From the IMG/VR virus record IMGVR_UViG_2645727810_000025, positions 1 through 43,893 of that record: a DNA stretch of 43,893 nt; one strand, 5' to 3'. The notes below the pieces were generated by a model that saw nothing but the letters and a program-made list of their open reading frames with translations, did not search any database and was not told the origin of the DNA. Below, piece by piece: positions 1 through 41,591 of this stretch (its first letter is position 1; each line of letters opens with the position of its first letter). This DNA is from a virus (lineage: Duplodnaviria; Heunggongvirae; Uroviricota; Caudoviricetes). The position numbers were made by a program, and so were the translations under genes.

Positions 1-180
1 TTAATTTCTGGATTGTATAAATTCTCGCTGTAGTTCAACTGTCATTTGCAGTTCTTCGCATTTCTTATGCAAGACACTATTTTCCGTTTGCAGCCAGTTA
101 ACTTGCGCGCTTTTCTGCACAATCACAGCGCGCTGCTCTTCCAGTTGGCGGATTAACTCCGCCTCATTGAACATATTCAT
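1..180 (-). CDS. hypothetical small protein (59 aa), coiled-coil-like
   Basis: ATG at 180-178 overlaps the TGA of the upstream methylase gene (ATGA); stop TAA at 3-1; sequence MNMFNEAELIRQ...; no recognisable domain. Confidence 0.45.
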   Translation of the reverse strand: MNMFNEAELIRQLEEQRAVIVQKSAQVNWLQTENSVLHKKCEELQMTVELQREFIQSRN

Positions 181-824
181 GCTGCACGCTCCCGTCCCTG
201 GCTGTCTGATGGTGATAGCGGGGCGTTTTTGAATGCCTTCGCCATTCCTGAGATATCTAGTGCATAACCAGGTTGCAGTTGCACTGCCGGACCGTCGCAC
301 TGATTTCCCCATACATCGAAGCCATGCGACGACTGGCGGGCGAAAAGCTCAATGCGCGGCACATCGCCCAGCAGCTGCACCAGTTTCTCTCTGATCACGT
401 CCGGCTTGCGCGAGTTCTCCAGGCGCGGCGCCGTGACATGCTGGCAGATAGAGGCGTCCATTCGTGCAGGAAGTTTTCCGCGTACCGCAAAGAGTACGTC
501 TTCGCTATTCGCCCTGGTCATGTGGCCCATTCCGATCGCACTGTTTCCTTTGTGCTTATTCGTCTTGTGCCAGGTGAATCCCTTCATGGTCATCAGCTTG
601 AAGCCCCACGCCTCGACTACCTTCAGTGCCTCAACCGGCTGCGTCGGCACCCACCACATAGCCAGCAGGCAATCGTCGGCTGCCAGATCCCAAACCGGCA
701 GGCGGCAGATATCCAACACGTTCATTACTGGGTATTTAAACCCGGCACCGCGCTCGCCGTCGGCGGCTTTATCGCGGTAGACCCAAGGCGGATCAGCGTA
801 GATAAGTGTGTATTTAACGGTCAT
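177..824 (-). CDS. DNA N6-adenine methyltransferase (Dam/MT-A70-like)
   Basis: 215-aa ORF with the DPPW catalytic motif (IYADPPW) near the N-terminus; ATG with SD-like GAAGGCGGTG; 4-bp ATGA overlaps with both neighbours. Confidence 0.8.
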   Translation of the reverse strand: MTVKYTLIYADPPWVYRDKAADGERGAGFKYPVMNVLDICRLPVWDLAADDCLLAMWWVPTQPVEALKVVEAWGFKLMTMKGFTWHKTNKHKGNSAIGMGHMTRANSEDVLFAVRGKLPARMDASICQHVTAPRLENSRKPDVIREKLVQLLGDVPRIELFARQSSHGFDVWGNQCDGPAVQLQPGYALDISGMAKAFKNAPLSPSDSQGRERAA

Positions 825-1483
825 GCTGCACCGCCTTCAATGCGCTTAAACTCGATCACCCAGACCCACGGGTTGGAATAAAAGCTGCCAGCTCCGTTAA
901 CCTTGTCCCACCACGCTTTAAAGCCATGCATTTCCGGACATAATCCAACCGGAACGCCTGCGATCGCATAATGCTCTGCATGGTTGAAGGCGCGGCCTGC
1001 GACGGTATCGCAATGCTCTAGCATATCTCCAAGGTCATTCAGGAGGTTTGATTCATCGGCATTCTGAAGCCTCTCGACGCGAATTCCGGTTATCTCCAGG
1101 CTGATTCTGCTGGCGGCGCGAGGCATGACTGCGCCAGATTGTGGGCGTGTCCAGTCTCCCCACTCCGGATCACCATCTGCCCAATACCAGAAATCCGGGA
1201 CTTCATGAGGCACGGCGGAATCGAAGAAGTTAAATGCGTCGAGCCGTGAAAATGACTCTCTGACGTAAATAACATCGCCGACTGCACCGAATGGACATGG
1301 ATGCCAGTAATCGCACACATTTTCAGCATCCTCACTCCACGGCCACCGGCTACCGTCTTCACGTTCTGCAATTTCTGTAGCCCGAGTCTGACGCCATTTT
1401 ATGGGCCGACGAACCTGCGTCATGCTGCCATCAAGCAGGGCACGCACTTGGTGCTCGTTGAAAATCATTCCGCGCTCTTTCAT
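821..1483 (-). CDS. hypothetical phage protein (220 aa)
   Basis: Long ORF with ATG start, translationally coupled at both ends; Trp/Cys-rich; no confident family assignment from sequence alone. Confidence 0.6.
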   Translation of the reverse strand: MKERGMIFNEHQVRALLDGSMTQVRRPIKWRQTRATEIAEREDGSRWPWSEDAENVCDYWHPCPFGAVGDVIYVRESFSRLDAFNFFDSAVPHEVPDFWYWADGDPEWGDWTRPQSGAVMPRAASRISLEITGIRVERLQNADESNLLNDLGDMLEHCDTVAGRAFNHAEHYAIAGVPVGLCPEMHGFKAWWDKVNGAGSFYSNPWVWVIEFKRIEGGAA

Positions 1484-1638
1484 GCTGCAACCTTCTTATT
1501 ATTCATCAGCTCAGCAATGCGCTGAGCCTTTAATGGGTTTTTGATAACCTTTCTGCCTGGCACAATCCATCCGCAACGAAGAGATGAATAAACCAGCGTG
1601 ATGCTACCGACGCGGATATTGTCGTGAGGGTTAGTCAT
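1480..1638 (-). CDS. hypothetical small protein (52 aa)
   Basis: ATG at 1638 preceded by GGTGGTG SD-like; stop overlaps next start (ATGA); the track's alternative GTG start at 1677 would overlap the upstream gene. Confidence 0.4.
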   Translation of the reverse strand: MTNPHDNIRVGSITLVYSSLRCGWIVPGRKVIKNPLKAQRIAELMNNKKVAA

Positions 1639-1930
1639 ACACCACCCCGCGACATCCGATCCCTGCGTATTCACCACGGCGCAGGCCGTTACCTTTCGAT
1701 ATGCACTGATCGCGGCGTATCGCTATCCTTGCGCGTTCAACCTCACCGACTGCTGCATCCATGCACAGCAACCAAAGCCTGGCTGCAATGCGGAACTGGC
1801 CTTTCGATTCTCGCTCAACAGCGCGCTTTTCTACCTCCATCGCCGCAGGAGTTACGGCGACAACCTTTGAAGCCTGACGCTGAGACACATAGTTCAGGTG
1901 ATACTTTTCAAGACGGGTTAATTTGCTCAT
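1631..1930 (-). CDS. hypothetical protein (99 aa)
   Basis: ATG at 1930 chosen over the track's longer upstream start because it is coupled (ATGA) to the stop of an upstream small ORF. Confidence 0.5.
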   Translation of the reverse strand: MSKLTRLEKYHLNYVSQRQASKVVAVTPAAMEVEKRAVERESKGQFRIAARLWLLCMDAAVGEVERARIAIRRDQCISKGNGLRRGEYAGIGCRGVVYD

Positions 1931-2043
1931 CGGATCCAGCCTTCTATGAAAATTACCGCCAGCAGATACAGCCAGGCGGAAACAGAGGTCAGGAATAAGT
2001 ACCATCCTGACCATTTTTCCCAGTGCCTGATCAGCGCTGTCAT
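1927..2043 (-). CDS. candidate small hydrophobic membrane peptide (38 aa), below the ORF-track cutoff
   Basis: My own translation: MTALIRHWEKWSGWYLFLTSVSAWLYLLAVIFIEGWIR; ATG overlaps the AlpA-like stop (ATGA) and its TGA overlaps the next ATG (ATGA); one predicted TM helix. Confidence 0.35.
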   Translation of the reverse strand: MTALIRHWEKWSGWYLFLTSVSAWLYLLAVIFIEGWIR

Positions 2044-2288
2044 GCGGCGTTACTTACTGGGCGGTAAACGCGCTGATCAACCGGCGGCTTTTTTCCGGTG
2101 AACTCTGCGGGGCTGGTGGCCTGACGTTCATCAAGCCAGTTCTCAACCTCTTCAGCGTTCCATGCACAACGCTTATCAGTAATCCAGAATCGCTGCGGGA
2201 ACTCGCCATTGCGCTCCATGCGATCAATGGTGCTCATAGATACCGGCACCACTGCCATCAGTTCCTTTTTGCCAAATGCTCTTTTCAT
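2040..2288 (-). CDS. AlpA-family phage transcriptional regulator / excisionase-like HTH protein
   Basis: 82 aa; motif VVPVSMSTIDRMERNGEFPQRF typical of the AlpA (prophage CP4-57 regulatory) family; ATG with GAGAGG SD. Confidence 0.75.
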   Translation of the reverse strand: MKRAFGKKELMAVVPVSMSTIDRMERNGEFPQRFWITDKRCAWNAEEVENWLDERQATSPAEFTGKKPPVDQRVYRPVSNAA

Positions 2289-2334
2289 AATTACCTCTCT
2301 TGCATTTGCGACGCGCGCGGCGCCGCAGTGGTGG

Positions 2335-3216
2335 TTACATCGGTACTTCGTTCAGTTCGTCGCAGCGGATGGTGTAAACGTCAGTTGCTTTTGCCAGCAG
2401 GTCATCATCACCTGCCAGTTTCTGAGCAACGTATTTGTACGCTTTGTCCAGTTCGGCCTGAGTGTTGTAGTTCATCGCCGCTACGGAAAATGCGTGCAGA
2501 ATCTCTTCAGGGCCGCGATCATCTTTGTACTGCTGACGATCTTCCTGCTTCTGCTCAGGCTTTGAGTTGATCAGGCTGTTCATGCCCTGAGCCGTTGCCG
2601 CAGGTGGCGTGATGTCGCGCTCAACACGCGGTGTTGTCTCCTGCAGTTCGTCGGGTGTATAGACACCAAGAAGAACATCAGGGGCATGCAGGCGCGCCCA
2701 GCGCTTAACGCACAGATAAGCAAGTTGCTGACGTGGATCCTGTTCCCACAGTGGAGAGTTACGGACACCGGCCTGAGCCATGCTGATGGTAAGTTCACGC
2801 GGCTCTGCTTCGCCTTTCAGCACTGCCGATACTGTTACGGTCAGTGATGGTGACTTGTCGCTCTTGCCATTCACCTTTGACCAGTCGCCGTCCCAGCGGT
2901 AATTCAGGCGGGTTGAAAGCAGGTTTGAAGACGAAACGACGGCGTTAACAAGCTGCGCTTCATAGCCAAGAGTGCCGTTTACAACGTGCGTCTTCTGGGC
3001 CACAGCGAACGGGTTCATGCCCCACTGCGCCGCCTGCATGGTTACCGCCAGGCAGTCAGCAGGCTTTCCTGCCAGGTGCTGCGGAACGGTTGCTTTACTG
3101 TCTGCCATCAGGGTTGCGAAACGCACCAGGCGGTCCATACCCTCAGGACTGAAGATTGCCGCAGCGGTCCCTACGGTAGCGCCAGGCTGTGATGTGATTG
3201 CGATATCGTTGCTCAT
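2335..3216 (-). CDS. single-strand annealing recombinase, RecT/Red-beta (Bet) family
   Basis: 293 aa from ATG at 3216 (ATGA overlap with exonuclease stop); QWGMNPF segment resembles the lambda Bet QYGLNPW region; partner of the adjacent exonuclease. Confidence 0.65.
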   Translation of the reverse strand: MSNDIAITSQPGATVGTAAAIFSPEGMDRLVRFATLMADSKATVPQHLAGKPADCLAVTMQAAQWGMNPFAVAQKTHVVNGTLGYEAQLVNAVVSSSNLLSTRLNYRWDGDWSKVNGKSDKSPSLTVTVSAVLKGEAEPRELTISMAQAGVRNSPLWEQDPRQQLAYLCVKRWARLHAPDVLLGVYTPDELQETTPRVERDITPPAATAQGMNSLINSKPEQKQEDRQQYKDDRGPEEILHAFSVAAMNYNTQAELDKAYKYVAQKLAGDDDLLAKATDVYTIRCDELNEVPM

Positions 3217-5703: not shown

Positions 5704-6300
5704 TTACTTGCTTTTGTTCTGCTCAAACACGAAGTTGATGAATGAGGTGATCTTGTTCTTCTCTTCCTGTGGCAGAGCTGCATACATCCGGTGGTCGTAG
5801 TCGATAACACCAGGAGCGCCGACGGGAATAATCATCTCGTATGCTTCATGCCCGAACGCGCGCGCCAGGGAGGAAAGAACACCGATGGTCGTGCTGACTT
5901 CCGCTTTCATAATCCGGTTAACTGTGGCCGGGCCAATACCAGCTGCAACAGCAACTTTCTTTTCGGATGTCATTTCCGTGTTCTTTCTCATCCAGGCATT
6001 GAGCGTGGCTGCGGCCTGCTTCTCTACAGTCCATTCGCCATCTTCAGTGGCCGGAATAAAGATATCAGCCTGTACTGCGTCCAGTTCGTGATCGACATCA
6101 AGCCAGAACTTTTCTTTGCGCGCCGCTTCTTCAATGATACGCGCGGCATTCGGCCCGATGTTTTTGATGCCAGTGCACCACCGGTTGACCAGGTTCTGCG
6201 AACGCTTCACCCGCTCTGCAAAGCGCAACTGGGTGTCATCGAAATCCCGGCGAATGATTTCGTTAAGGTTTTTGCGTCTTATGTCATAAATACTTTTCAT
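5704..6300 (-). CDS. CI-like phage repressor with two Xre-type helix-turn-helix domains
   Basis: 198 aa; N-terminal HTH (TQLRFAERVKRSQNLVNRW...ARKEKFWLD) and a second HTH-like segment (AVAAGIGPATVNRIMKAEV); no S24 peptidase domain; divergent from the Cro-like gene with palindromic sites on both sides; no SD before the ATG. Confidence 0.7.
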   Translation of the reverse strand: MKSIYDIRRKNLNEIIRRDFDDTQLRFAERVKRSQNLVNRWCTGIKNIGPNAARIIEEAARKEKFWLDVDHELDAVQADIFIPATEDGEWTVEKQAAATLNAWMRKNTEMTSEKKVAVAAGIGPATVNRIMKAEVSTTIGVLSSLARAFGHEAYEMIIPVGAPGVIDYDHRMYAALPQEEKNKITSFINFVFEQNKSK

Positions 6301-6386: not shown

Positions 6387-6401
6387 TAATCATTGATTTT
6401 T

Positions 6402-6416
6402 TCACCAGAAAGGTAA
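6402..6416. promoter_or_regulatory. degenerate operator-like site TCACCAGAAAGGTAA (OR-like site 3)
   Basis: One mismatch in the left half; followed by TAATTCA; 40 bp upstream of the Cro-like ATG. Confidence 0.4.
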
Positions 6417-6455
6417 TAATTCAGATATGAATAGACAGGCTGAGATAAGCAAAAT

Positions 6456-6689
6456 ATGAGTGACGAAAAAAAATTTGATTTCAAAAAGCACTGGCTGGAG
6501 CTGTCTCCTGTTGAGCGTGAAGCATTTGCAGATGAAGCCGGAACCACCAGTCATTACATCCAGACGCACCTGACCGGGCGCCGCAAGATGCCAGGTAAGC
6601 GACTGATGGACGGACTGTTTAAAGCATGTCGTTCCCGCGAATGGACAAAGTCAAAACCTGAATTAGTGCTCTTCTTCTACGACCGATAA
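6456..6689 (+). CDS. Cro/YdaS-like small DNA-binding protein
   Basis: 77 aa; position divergent from the repressor; segment TSHYIQTHLTGRRKMP resembles YdaS/Cro-type HTH proteins. Confidence 0.55.
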   Translation: MSDEKKFDFKKHWLELSPVEREAFADEAGTTSHYIQTHLTGRRKMPGKRLMDGLFKACRSREWTKSKPELVLFFYDR

Positions 6690-6837
6690 CTCTCCCTGAA
6701 CCCATCAATGCCGTCATCCCCTGGCGGCTCCTTCCTGCATAAAACACCTTTCTGGTAATAAAAAACCATATACGGTTGATCTTTTTTCGCCTTAGTGCAA
6801 AATTACCGATATCCATAACAAAAAGGAGGCACCTCCT

Positions 6838-7032
6838 GTGAAGATTGTCACCAGAATGGAGGCAGCAAAAGCTGGCCTTAATCGTTTTTATACCGGTAAA
6901 GAATGCCGAAATGGTCACCGTGCTGAGCGCTACGTTCTGAACGGAACGTGTGTTGAGTGCGCAATGAATAGTGCTCATCGTCACCGTGATGAGTTCGCTG
7001 CTGCGTTGAGGAACGCGCGGGAGGCAACATGA
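6838..7032 (+). CDS. hypothetical small Cys/His-rich protein (64 aa)
   Basis: GTG start 8 nt after a strong SD (AAAGGAGG); C-x5-H...C-x2-C pattern suggests metal binding; stop overlaps next ATG. Confidence 0.5.
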
Positions 7033-7703
7033 ATATCTATCAACGCATCAACGGATCTGACTGGCGCAATATTTGGGTGGTTGGCGATCTGCATGGTTGT
7101 TACACAAACCTGATGGGAAAGCTGGATGACCTTAAGTTCGACCCGGCACAAGACCTGCTTATCTCCGTGGGTGATCTTATCGACCGAGGAACTGAAAACG
7201 TTGAATGCCTGGAGCTTATTACTATGCCATGGTTCCGATCTGTACGTGGCAACCATGAACAGATGATGATTGATGGCCTGTCAGAGCATGGAAACGTCAA
7301 TCACTGGCTGGTAAATGGTGGTGGATGGTTCTTTTATCTCGACTACGAAAAAGAAGTGTTGGCTAAGGCGCTGGTTCACAAAGCTGCTGAGTTACCGCTA
7401 ATCATCGAACTGGTGACCAGCGACCGTAAAGTTGTCATCTGCCACGCTGACTACCCGCACAACGAATATGAGTTCGACAAGCCAGTGCCAGAGGAAATGG
7501 TCATCTGGAACAGAGAACGGATAGCCAATGCGCAAGACGGATATCATCACGAAATCATCGGCGCAGACCTTTTCATCTTTGGTCACACGCCTGCACGTCA
7601 GCCACTGAAATACTCCAACCAGATGTACATCGACACCGGCGCTGTGTTCTGTGGAAACCTGACATTATTACAGTTACAAGGCGAGGTGAATAATGGCCGG
7701 TGA
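7029..7703 (+). CDS. serine/threonine protein phosphatase (lambda PPase / calcineurin-like metallophosphatase)
   Basis: 224 aa with GDLHGC, GDLIDRG and GNHE metallophosphatase motifs; ATG with GGGAGG SD. Confidence 0.85.
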
Positions 7704-8508
7704 CTGGATCAAGATGCGTGCCGACCTGCACACGCACCCTAAAGTTGTCCGCATGGCGTCCGCATTGAAAGCGGACAGATTGCGGATAGTTGGCGGACTA
7801 CATTCCGCATGGTGTCTTTTCGATGTCCACTCTGTTGACGGTTTTCTTGACGGATACAGTGCGGAGACTCTCGACGACCTGATCGGCTTCCCCGGATTCG
7901 CGCGTGCAATGATGGCTGTCGGATGGCTGGAAGAAGAAGGCGAAAGCCTAGTAATGCCGCGCTTTGAAGCCCATAACGGGCAGTCTGCCAAGCGTCGAGC
8001 ACAGGACGCAGACAGGAAGAGAAATGTCCGCAAAGCGTCCGCATCAGAAGCGGACAAAAAGCGGACCAGAGAAGAGAAGAGAAGAGAAGATCTAAAAGAT
8101 AAAACCCCACACATAGGCGAAGCGAAAAATCAGCCTGTGGATAACTCCGGAGGTGGCAAACCAGATCCCCATGCAACAAATTCCGTGATTGATGGATATG
8201 TCCCACCAGGAGGTTCCGGTTCACTGGGTAAATTCACTATGCCGGATAGCTGGACGCCGGATCCTGATTTCACCAAACGAGCTGCGCTATGGGGAGTAAA
8301 CCTTAAAACCGATGTGACGCCATTTGAACTGGCAGATTTCATCACGTACTGGAAAGCCGAGGGCAAAGCATTCCATCACGACCAGTGGCAGCAGAAACTG
8401 GCGCGCAGTGTTCAACTGTCCAGGACAAAGCCAGCGAGAACGCAGCAGAGGGACGTTAACGCAGTACCAGAACCAGACAGCGAGATCCCTCCAGGCTTTC
8501 GCGGTTAA
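7693..8508 (+). CDS. replication protein with DnaT-like C-terminal domain
   Basis: 271 aa; C-terminus ([13 protein letters not shown]...[24 protein letters not shown]...[12 protein letters not shown]) closely parallels the C-terminus of E. coli primosomal protein DnaT as I recall it; ATG with GAGGTG SD. Confidence 0.6.
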
Positions 8509-8630: not shown

Positions 8631-9095
8631 ATGGCGGCAGTATTAGGGATTGACCCAGGATGCAGAGGATCTCTGGTCCTGATAACTGAGCAGGGCGGAT
8701 ACATCGACCATCTGGCAATGCCGACCATCAAGGTTGGGACCAAGTCCAGAGTCAACGGCGCAGCGGTGGCGGCATGGATAAGGCAGTACGGAATAACTCA
8801 TGCGTATCTGGAGCAGGTGGGCGCAATGCCAGGACAGGGAACGGCGAGCATGTTCACGTTCGGGCATGCAGCTGGCGTGGTGGAGGGGATACTCCAGGGG
8901 CTGAACATCCCATACACGCTGGTAACTCCGCAGTCCTGGAAGAAGTCAGCCGGTCTCATCGGAAGTGACAAGGACGCAGCGCGCAGCAGGGCGATTCAGC
9001 TCTACCCGGAACTCAGGGCGCTGGATGCAAAAGCGAAAGGTCAGGCCATCGCAGATGCGCTGTTAATCGCAAGGTTCGGGATCGGTATCAAATAA
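8631..9095 (+). CDS. RuvC-like Holliday junction resolvase
   Basis: 154 aa; N-terminal GIDPGCRGS motif analogous to the RuvC GIDPG active-site segment. Confidence 0.65.
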   Translation: MAAVLGIDPGCRGSLVLITEQGGYIDHLAMPTIKVGTKSRVNGAAVAAWIRQYGITHAYLEQVGAMPGQGTASMFTFGHAAGVVEGILQGLNIPYTLVTPQSWKKSAGLIGSDKDAARSRAIQLYPELRALDAKAKGQAIADALLIARFGIGIK

Positions 9096-33995: not shown

Positions 33996-34685
33996 TCAGA
34001 ACTTACCAGTCATGCTGTTGATGTACTGCACATGAGTCTGGATATCGCGCAGGCATTTACTGGCACCTACGATGTAGCTCATCATGGCCGTGAACTCTGC
34101 TACAGCACCTTCAACATCATGTCCGTCGGCGTCCATCTTCCGCAGCAGGTCCATCAGCATCGATCGCTCCGTCAGGCCAAGAACGCCTTCAGGTGAATGG
34201 ATGTGTTCACGGTAGTTCGGCTTGAGTGGTGCGCTGTATTCCTGTTTCTCTTCCGTTTTCATCGCTTCCAGAATGGCGGGCATGAAGCTGGCCACAACCT
34301 TTTGCGCTTTGTCTGCCGGTGATAATTCTTCACGAACGTAGCGACCGGTGCGACGTATCTGCGGGAGAACTTCGCCAGTTACCCATTTGCGGAAACGATA
34401 GGGGATAGTACCAGGAGTTACCGCATCGCGGCAGCGCAGGATCAGAGTGTAGAGGCCGGATTCAGAGATGATGAGGGTATTAGGGTTCCCTCGTTTTCCG
34501 TCGGTTAAAGCGACGGTATTCTTTTCGTCGTCATCCAATTTAAGCAGAGCATCACGGTTGTTTGATATACCAAGAGCATTACATACATCTAACGCAATAA
34601 ACCATGGCTCGCCGTCGATGATGATTGCACGAATATCGGCTTGCGATTCGAAAGAAAAAACTGAAGTATTTTTTTGAGTTGTCAT
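33996..34685 (-). CDS. phage antirepressor, Bro-N domain protein
   Basis: 229 aa from ATG at 34685 (AAGGTG SD; the track's first codon at 34694 is GTG); N-terminal Bro-N pattern (FSFESQADIRAIIIDGEPWFIALDVCNALGI). Confidence 0.7.
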   Translation of the reverse strand: MTTQKNTSVFSFESQADIRAIIIDGEPWFIALDVCNALGISNNRDALLKLDDDEKNTVALTDGKRGNPNTLIISESGLYTLILRCRDAVTPGTIPYRFRKWVTGEVLPQIRRTGRYVREELSPADKAQKVVASFMPAILEAMKTEEKQEYSAPLKPNYREHIHSPEGVLGLTERSMLMDLLRKMDADGHDVEGAVAEFTAMMSYIVGASKCLRDIQTHVQYINSMTGKF

Positions 34686-34843
34686 AGTGATCACCTTTTA
34701 GTCTGGTTAATCACCACCGGAGGTTCCAATCTCGGAGGTGGTGAACTGTGCAGGGTTGGAACTACCGGCTAAAAGGACCCGGCGCACCTTTCGGTGCCCC
34801 CACACAGCCCACCATAATGCGAATGTGGCCGTGCTTAACGCAT

Positions 34844-38726: not shown

Positions 38727-39018
38727 GCTGCTTTTACTGATTGCCAATGCGGTTATCTGTTCAGCTATAGCAATCCGCGTCGGTACATTCAGGCGTAATG
38801 GATCGCAACACCGCCGGTGGGGTGGGTGGATAGCCTACTTCCTTATCGTGGCATCAGCCAGCATCCCCGTCCGGGCTGCATATGCAATCTGGTATCACAC
38901 ACCAATGTCCGCTGATTTATCAGAGGTCATCATCAATGCTGTCATGCTTGCCGCCGTTCTGAAGACGCGCGGTAACGTCGTGCAGATATTCAAAATATCG
39001 AGGTCTCAACATGAGTGA
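38713..39018 (+). CDS. membrane protein, holin/antiholin-like
   Basis: 101 aa, about 3 TM segments; overlaps its neighbours; GGGGAG SD. Confidence 0.5.
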   Translation: MTTHELLLLIANAVICSAIAIRVGTFRRNGSQHRRWGGWIAYFLIVASASIPVRAAYAIWYHTPMSADLSEVIINAVMLAAVLKTRGNVVQIFKISRSQHE

Positions 39019-39490
39019 ACTTGCATGGATTTCTGAAGGAAGAAAATATATAGGGCAACTGGAAATCAAAGGCCCTCGTCATAATCCTCTAATTCTCCAG
39101 TTCTGGAAGGATATTAAACGAGGTGGTATCAAAGATGATGAAACGCCATGGTGTGCTGCATACGTCGGATCAATGCTCGAGCGTGTCGGAATCAAATCAA
39201 CCCGTTTCGAGTCTGCAAAATCTTACCTCAACTGGGGCGTCGAAATTAGCGAACCAGCTTATGGGTGTGTAGTGGTATTCAATCGTGACGGTGGCGGACA
39301 TGTCGGGTTTGTTGTCGGACAGCAACAGAACGGTGACCTGATGGTGCTGGGCGGTAATCAGTCAGATGCCATCAATATTCGTGCATTTTCACGCTCCCGT
39401 GTCACCGGTTACCGCTGGCCTGTTAATGTTGCCAAGGACAACAGGAAGTTACCTTTAATGACCGGCTCATTATCGGTGAGTGAATCATGA
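39011..39490 (+). CDS. endolysin, NlpC/P60-CHAP-like cell-wall peptidase (TIGR02594-like)
   Basis: 159 aa; candidate Cys nucleophile (PWCAAYVG) and His (GGHVGFVVG); located between the holin-like genes and the spanins. Confidence 0.6.
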   Translation: MSELAWISEGRKYIGQLEIKGPRHNPLILQFWKDIKRGGIKDDETPWCAAYVGSMLERVGIKSTRFESAKSYLNWGVEISEPAYGCVVVFNRDGGGHVGFVVGQQQNGDLMVLGGNQSDAINIRAFSRSRVTGYRWPVNVAKDNRKLPLMTGSLSVSES

Positions 39491-40400: not shown

Positions 40401-41591
40401 ATGTTGACTGACACCAGGCTGCGTCACCTTAAGCCGAAGGAGAAACTCTATAAAGTTAATGACCGTGATGGTCTGTATGTTGCGGTCACTCCGGCTGGAA
40501 CTATTTCATTTCGTTATAACTATTCAATAAACGGAAGACAGGAGACCGTTACTTTTGGCCGCTATGGTGTTGGAGGGATCACGCTTGCAGAAGCGCGTGA
40601 ACGGCTCAATGAAGCTAAAAAAATGGTTGCCAGTGGAAGATCGCCAGCGAGGGAAAAAGCTAGAGATAAAGCTCGTATCAAAGATGCGGAGACTTTTGGT
40701 GCATGGGCTGAGAAATGGTTACGCGGTTATCAAATGGCTGAATCGACGCGTGATATGCGGCGTTCGGTATATCAAAGGGAGTTGAAGTCAAAATTTGCGC
40801 AGCAGAAATTGACCGAGATTACACATGAAGACTTACGCGCATTAACCGATAACATTGTCGAGAGAGGGGCACCGGCGACAGCTGTGCACGCCAGAGAGAT
40901 TGTATTGCAAGTCTATCGCTGGGCTATTGAGCGCGGTCAGAAGGTTGAGAATCCCGCTGATCTGGTACGGCCTGCAAGCATAGCGAAATTTGAGCCTCGT
41001 GACAGGGCATTGACGCCAGTTGAAATTGGTCTGATGTATCGGTACATGGAACGGGTAGGAACGACGCCATCAATCAGAGCAGCGGTTAAACTTTTGCTGT
41101 TAACGATGGTACGTAAAAGTGAGCTTACTAACGCAACCTGGAACGAGATCAATTTTAGTGAGGCATTATGGACGATACCAAAGGAGAGGATGAAACGACG
41201 TAATCCACATTTGGTTTTTCTTTCCAGACAGGCAATGGATATTATGATTGCTCTCAAAACCTTTGCCGGTAGCTCTGATTTTATCCTTCCTTCGCGGTAC
41301 GATTCCGATGCGCCAATGAGTAGCGCTACTTTAAACCGGGTTTTGACACTGACGTATCGTCTGGCTCAGAAAGAAGGGGACTTGTTACCTAAGTTTGGTC
41401 CCCATGACTTACGGCGTACTGCCAGCACCTTGCTACATGAGGCCGGGTACAATACTGACTGGATTGAGAAGTGCCTTGCCCATGAACAAAAGGGGGTACG
41501 AGCTGTTTATAACAAGGCTGAATATCGTGAGCAGAGGGCCGAGATGCTACAAGATTGGGCGAATATGATTGATGAATGGACTAGTAAGTAG
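40401..41591 (+). CDS. tyrosine site-specific integrase (P4-type)
   Basis: 396 aa; N-terminal arm-binding region (MLTDTRLRHLKPKEKLYKVNDRDGLYVAV) and C-terminal catalytic region with R...HDLRRT...Y residues typical of phage tyrosine integrases. Confidence 0.85.
   Translation: MLTDTRLRHLKPKEKLYKVNDRDGLYVAVTPAGTISFRYNYSINGRQETVTFGRYGVGGITLAEARERLNEAKKMVASGRSPAREKARDKARIKDAETFGAWAEKWLRGYQMAESTRDMRRSVYQRELKSKFAQQKLTEITHEDLRALTDNIVERGAPATAVHAREIVLQVYRWAIERGQKVENPADLVRPASIAKFEPRDRALTPVEIGLMYRYMERVGTTPSIRAAVKLLLLTMVRKSELTNATWNEINFSEALWTIPKERMKRRNPHLVFLSRQAMDIMIALKTFAGSSDFILPSRYDSDAPMSSATLNRVLTLTYRLAQKEGDLLPKFGPHDLRRTASTLLHEAGYNTDWIEKCLAHEQKGVRAVYNKAEYREQRAEMLQDWANMIDEWTSK

Follow-up and report, generated by a model that had tools for sequence, protein, structure and literature searches.

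A NinI-type phosphatase gene in a variable cargo slot of an epsilon15-like phage genome

The lambda phosphatase family is a textbook source of reagent enzyme. In lambda-type phages the gene (ninI, or orf221) is found just 5' of Q in the nin region, the stretch between the replication genes and Q in which NinE occurs with NinG, NinH or RusA as flanks. For instance, the order in phage HK225 is NinE-NinI-HNH-RusA-Q, and Klebsiella and Enterobacter prophages (P0004 and P0008) likewise show NinE-phosphatase-NinG/RusA-Q contexts, the phosphatase gene having NinE as one neighbour and NinG, RusA or Q as the other. Lambda ninI is non-essential (PMC10695390), its product has low-confidence two-hybrid links with N and Q (PMC3224144), and the enzyme is promiscuous in vitro, acting also as a 2',3'-cyclic nucleotide phosphodiesterase (PMC2190708). 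No in vivo substrate of NinI/lambda phosphatase was found in the literature searched, and nothing pertinent to epsilon15 and a phosphatase was found there by title or abstract.

The DNA analysed here (the window) is a 43,893-nt stretch of a Caudoviricetes virus, IMG/VR record IMGVR_UViG_2645727810_000025. A first-pass annotation, made from the sequence alone, had described one of its genes as a functionally unresolved accessory gene of lambdoid phages. The functional half of that description agrees with the literature above; the lambdoid half must be revised, as outlined below. As an annotation the assignment is correct but ordinary, since the enzyme family is known and NCBI already lists this very protein as 'metallophosphoesterase' or 'serine/threonine protein phosphatase', a label to which our annotation adds nothing. 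The phage type and position of the gene can be corrected, and a cargo-slot context can be added. The value of the locus lies in this context, in which a lambdoid nin gene recurs in a gene-precise slot of epsilon15-like phages beside DNA-modification genes. The explanation that fits best, and in which our confidence is high, is one in which we infer a catalytically competent lambda-PPase orthologue, carried as early-operon cargo exchanged with nin regions, expressed early and serving a dispensable role in takeover or counter-defence.

Identity and active site of the phosphatase

Two features define the gene and its translation start:

7019..7024, + strand: Shine-Dalgarno-like GGGAGG, 4 nt 5' of the phosphatase ATG, read directly from the sequence
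7029..7703, + strand: coding sequence of a NinI / lambda-PPase-type binuclear metallophosphatase, 224 aa, from the open reading frame with profile and structure-sequence matches

Both the open reading frame list and the sequence give a frame that runs from ATG to TGA, with the stop codon at 7701-7703. The product matches the Pfam Metallophos family (PF00149) at 57.3 bits against a cut-off of 21.5, the PHROGs family phrog_246, 'NinI-like serine-threonine phosphatase' (E=2.3e-111), and, as its best PDB sequence match, lambda phosphatase (1G5B, E=3.7e-119). The alignment to 1G5B is gapless over residues 1-218 of 221, and a script check counted 168 identities in these 218 positions (77%). The active-site residues that were checked are those of lambda in 11 of 11 cases: D20 and H22 in motif I (GDxHG; VVGDLHG at residues 17-23), D49, D52 and R53 in motif II (GDxxDRG; GDLIDRG at residues 48-54), N75 and H76 in motif III (GNHE at residues 74-77), and all four residues of the C-terminal half, H139, R162, H186 and D202. 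The first-pass annotation had proposed a lambda-PPase-type phosphatase at this position with all metallophosphatase motifs intact, and had named mutated catalytic residues as the finding that would speak against it. The frame is exact, the PF00149 check that it recommended has now been run, and no catalytic residue is mutated on the gapless 1G5B alignment; the proposal stands.

The protein is a NinI/orf221 orthologue and belongs to the binuclear Mn2+/Ni2+ metallophosphoesterases within the PPP/calcineurin-like superfamily. Its two metal ions would be held by D20, H22, D49, N75, H139 and H186, with D202 contacting them through water, and R53, R162 and H76 (paired with D52) would bind phosphate and aid departure of the leaving group. 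From the structural work on 1G5B we take D20, H22, D49, N75 and H186 to be metal ligands, with D49 bridging, R162 to bind phosphate and D52 to pair with H76. In lambda-Pase, H76 serves as phosphate contact and general acid, R53 determines monoesterase activity, H139 is a Mn ligand and D202 makes a water-mediated metal contact (PMC2190708). Comparison with HK225 ninI gave pN 0.10, pS 0.68 and dN/dS 0.06 (Nei-Gojobori), which marks it as a real gene under strong purifying selection. Judged by its sequence, the protein is very probably an active Mn-dependent phosphoesterase, and it would be expected to hydrolyse phospho-Ser/Thr/Tyr/His protein substrates and small phosphoesters in a Mn2+-dependent manner, as lambda-PPase does.

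The placement of the protein among related phosphatases is consistent with this assignment. It is colinear with lambda NinI, has the same metal- and phosphate-binding residues and falls in the same PHROGs family, but differs in its last 6 residues (EVNNGR), the final codons being derived from an overlap with the replication gene. Its length of 224 aa also sets it apart from the nin phosphatases of HK225 and of the Klebsiella and Enterobacter prophages, which have 222 aa. The E. coli phosphatases PphA/PrpA (NF008516) and PphB/PrpB (NF007425) show full-length homology to it (NCBIfam, E=4.8e-83 and 1.8e-67); however, the equivalog cut-offs are missed in both cases (278.5 < 326 and 227.2 < 332), and the E. 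coli genes are chromosomal rather than part of a phage operon. The models for ApaH (NF001204/TIGR00668), PrpE (NF010148) and Pnkp (TIGR04075) gave 69, 46.7, 48.4 and 42.7 bits, where the cut-offs are 176, 222.85, 340 and 750. ApaH and Pnkp are matched in part only, and the PrpE match, which covers residues 17-215, is far under its cut-off.

The early-right operon of an epsilon15-like genome

Both halves of the window, as well as the 5-kb neighbourhood of the phosphatase gene, match Uetakevirus genomes, with the Salmonella phages PAT1, 65FD and 66FD at 90-93% nucleotide identity and epsilon15, SPN1S and phiV10 as the next matches. Read from these similarities, the window is an epsilon15-like temperate podophage or prophage of the genus Uetakevirus. 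The gene lies outside any nin region and not next to Q, so that the attribution to lambdoid phages does not hold. The features around it are as follows:

5704..6300, - strand: divergently transcribed HTH prophage repressor (HTH_3, E=1.6e-8; the PAT1 and epsilon15 counterparts are annotated as repressor)
6393..6420, + strand: candidate early-right sigma-70 promoter-like site, TTGATT-16-AATAAT, 9/12 matches, placed 5' of the 77-aa gene
6456..6689, + strand: 77-aa gene, first of the early-right operon, in a Cro-like position (phrog_35 'transcriptional repressor', E=4e-11; homologous to epsilon15 gp39)
6838..7032, + strand: 64-aa epsilon15 gp40-like open reading frame with C-x2-GH...C-x2-C and a GTG start (phrog_1081, E=2e-27)
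7693..8508, + strand: DnaT-domain replication initiation gene with its ATG at 7693 (PF17948, E=7.5e-18; phrog_2509, E=1.6e-106)
8631..9095: RuvC-like resolvase, 3' of the replication gene

The phosphatase gene is tightly interlocked with its neighbours. The TGA stop of the 64-aa frame overlaps the phosphatase ATG by 4 nt (ATGA, 7029-7032), an overlap with the upstream gene of the same length as that of HK225 ninI, and the first 11 nt of the replication gene (7693-7703) overlap the phosphatase 3' end. A terminator scan found no + strand terminator-like site from the 77-aa gene to the replication gene, and no promoter or terminator of its own was found flanking the phosphatase gene. Promoter-like and terminator-like sites in the region are no more numerous than in shuffled sequence, and it is position alone that backs the promoter-like site at 6393..6420.

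Transcription would start in the divergent promoter region that separates the repressor from the 77-aa gene, under control of the prophage repressor, and the overlapping start and stop codons fit translational coupling with the gp40-like frame and the DnaT-like gene. The phosphatase would then be made early in lytic growth and repressed in the lysogen, as follows from operon co-transcription, repressor control and translational coupling. The first-pass annotation had likewise placed the gene in the early region, and it is indeed within the early (right) operon. The order of genes in the window is not that of a nin region with its NinE and NinG/NinH/RusA flanks. The upstream 64-aa frame has no match to NinE (PF05322) or to any other Pfam family, and therefore nothing ties it to NinE.

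At 6824..6837, just 5' of the GTG of the 64-aa frame, is a palindromic hairpin with 5 perfect base pairs (AGGAGG(C/T)GCCTCCT-like). It contains the likely Shine-Dalgarno sequence of that frame, was scored as terminator-like for the - strand only, and sits exactly at the left end (6826) of the break in homology to PAT1 described below.

Content and origin of the cargo slot

Comparison with PAT1 by blastn shows where the variable part of the operon begins and ends. Homology stops at 6826 (93% before this point) and resumes at 7693 (92%), where the replication gene has its ATG, leaving one segment between:

6827..7692, + strand: 866-nt cassette without nucleotide homology to PAT1, holding a divergent gp40-like allele and the phosphatase (blastn)

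The proteins on either side, the 77-aa protein and the replication protein, are 95-96% identical to those of PAT1 (96% at the amino acid level for the replication protein), and the 64-aa gp40-like protein is 47-48% identical to its PAT1 and BUCT711 homologues. No GC anomaly marks the cassette in the composition profile. A gp40-like frame is conserved 5' of the replication gene in epsilon15-like phages, with highly divergent alleles (6838..7032 in the window, 3453..3656 in L001 and 3486..3689 in L002).

The position taken by the phosphatase is a variable cargo slot, which in related phages mostly holds DNA-modifying enzymes. In PAT1 it is filled by a 353-aa C5 DNA methylase (PF00145), in epsilon15 by a 389-aa DNA methyltransferase and in Klebsiella phage vB_KpnP_BUCT711 by a metallophosphoesterase; in SPN1S it is empty. 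For a broader view, 160 loci that encode proteins related to the replication protein were taken from viral and genome collections, and the content between the gp40-like frame and the replication gene was classified. The counts below cover the 67 loci with that architecture; related genomes are included among them, and the samples are not independent.

C5 DNA methylase: 36/67 loci
Empty: 16/67 loci
Phosphatase: 7/67 loci
Phosphatase and methylase: 1/67 loci (L046)
PAPS-reductase-domain protein (PF01507): 3/67 loci
Tgt/DpdA-like protein (phrog_887): 2/67 loci
Something else: 2/67 loci

In L046 (IMGVR_UViG_3300011541_000008, 1194..3011) a NinI-type phosphatase and a C5 DNA methylase are found in tandem, and the cargos of the slot are therefore additive rather than mutually exclusive. 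The rarer fillings are a PAPS-reductase-domain protein of 430-444 aa and a Tgt/DpdA-like protein of 250 aa (L036 1657..2991, L051 1699..2991, L032 2239..2991 and L034 2239..2991). Lambda NinC is annotated as a member of the PAPS-reductase family (PMC10695390), and because the PAPS-reductase-domain filling shares this family, a second nin-type gene appears in the slot.

The gp40-like alleles segregate with the type of cargo. That of the window accompanies the phosphatase, being 98% identical in L017, L028, L029, L060 and L061. In L060 and L061 this holds even though the replication gene is only 71% identical. The gp40-like frame and its cargo thus seem to travel together as a single cassette.

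The window phosphatase is common in this setting. Its 90% protein cluster has 101 member sequences, the representative alone is present on 764 contigs, and the sources are Salmonella enterica (most members), E. coli and Citrobacter freundii. Every cluster-member context that was examined is the same Uetakevirus slot. Among 5,426 complete E. coli genomes, none (0/5,426) carries a copy above 82% nucleotide identity to the phosphatase gene. The host of the window is uncertain and may be E. coli or Salmonella. The exact phosphatase sequence is labelled E. coli by its sources; the nearest phage genomes are those of Salmonella phages.

Outside the slot, the closest relatives are the lambdoid nin-region phosphatases, at 84-87% amino acid identity (HK225 ninI and the Klebsiella and Enterobacter prophages P0004 and P0008), which indicates transfer of the gene between types of phage. 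At the nucleotide level, homology to HK225 ninI (78.8%) covers 7025-7660 of the window, starting 4 nt before the ATG and ending inside the gene. The slot phosphatases of BUCT711 (a Uetakevirus), L047 and the Kluyvera locus L097 lie in the same order of repressor, 77-aa gene, gp40-like frame, phosphatase and replication gene, but their identity to the window protein is only 64-79%, below that of the window protein to lambdoid NinI. The slot phosphatases are thus not one tight lineage. Based on the matrix of pairwise identities, the simplest reading would be that ninI has repeatedly been exchanged, with gene precision, between the slot and lambdoid nin regions, and such exchange could have occurred by recombination at gene boundaries.

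Possible roles of the phosphatase

The favoured role, argued from location, is a dispensable one in host takeover or counter-defence, in which the enzyme would dephosphorylate host or defence proteins. This role is favoured because the slot otherwise holds enzymes of the DNA-modification (anti-restriction) type, and because the phosphatase is once found beside a methylase. No PADLOC-DB v2 profile matched the phosphatase at E<=0.01, and no kinase-type defence target was identified for a counter-defence role. A report on defence countered by phage phosphatases (bioRxiv 10.64898/2026.01.28.702374) was considered and set aside as irrelevant, as it concerns a Macro-domain ADPR-1''-phosphate phosphatase of unrelated fold.

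The main rival concerns the substrate, which might not be protein. The enzyme could instead act on a nucleotide or a nucleic-acid end, as a 2',3'-cyclic phosphodiesterase/3'-phosphatase that heals RNA ends or destroys a defence nucleotide signal or alarmone. It owes its standing to the 2',3'-cyclic phosphodiesterase activity of lambda-Pase, which hydrolyses 2',3'-cAMP and has its active site in common with the end-healing phosphatase domain in C. thermocellum Pnkp (PMC2190708). The window protein itself matches that domain (4J6O, E=1.3e-9), ApaH structures and the ApaH, PrpE and Pnkp models of NCBIfam, and the alternative cargos of the slot (C5 methyltransferase, Tgt/DpdA-like and PAPS-reductase-like proteins) are all of a nucleic-acid-modification type. 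However, the strongest non-phage matches are the protein phosphatases PphA and PphB, with ApaH and Pnkp at E=4e-19 or weaker; R53, whose counterpart in CthPnkp confers monoesterase activity (PMC2190708), is present; and no kinase or ligase partner adjoins the gene. We regard this substrate as rather unlikely.

Two further readings concern the gene rather than its substrate, and both are disfavoured by the operon anatomy and the dN/dS. The similarity to host phosphatases of the PphA/PrpA type is high, and the gene occurs widely among prophages of Salmonella, E. coli and Citrobacter, as might be expected of a lysogenic-conversion (moron) gene that a prophage expresses so as to adjust the stress or two-component signalling of its host, a role that has been proposed for the chromosomal homologues PrpA/PrpB. 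Such a gene would, however, sit poorly with start and stop codons that overlap those of adjoining early lytic genes, with the lack of an autonomous promoter or terminator in the scan of its flanks, and with a position downstream of a repressor-controlled divergent promoter region whose operators are annotated in epsilon15; the PphA and PphB equivalog cut-offs, moreover, are not reached. We consider a moron improbable. Least probable by far is a decaying passenger without current function. The dispensability of lambda ninI (PMC10695390) and the empty slot in 16 of the 67 related loci would suit a passenger, but the full-length frame, the 11/11 intact catalytic residues, the dN/dS of 0.06 and the retention of the gene in hundreds of contigs effectively refute it.

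Returning to the favoured takeover or counter-defence role, a wider proposal can be put forward tentatively, as one that is less likely than not: that NinI-type phosphatases serve as early counter-defence cargo, and that lambda phosphatase acts on a pathway of host immunity, which could be a phosphorylation-dependent defence or a phospho-nucleotide signal. Such a target is suggested by the way in which the slot swaps the phosphatase with orphan C5 methylases and with Tgt/DpdA-like and PAPS-reductase-like genes, for which DNA-modification and anti-restriction functions are plausible. If counter-defence is true, the slot variants with phosphatase, with methylase or empty would form a natural isogenic series for testing. 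Phages whose main difference is what the slot holds (phosphatase, methylase, both or nothing) occur naturally and can offer a convenient genetic handle on the decades-old question of how a phage benefits from lambda phosphatase.

No tRNA genes were found in the window. Elsewhere in it, a tyrosine integrase (PF00589, with an Arm-DNA-binding domain) is encoded at 40401..41591 (+), a CHAP-domain protein at 39011..39490 (+) and a Bro-N-domain protein at 33996..34694 (-), the last on the opposite strand within the late region. The phage is without a C5 methylase in its slot, yet carries another methylase in a leftward-transcribed block not far from the window's left end, where the frame at 177..824 (-) encodes an MT-A70-family (N6-adenine) methyltransferase (PF05063, E=2.4e-23).
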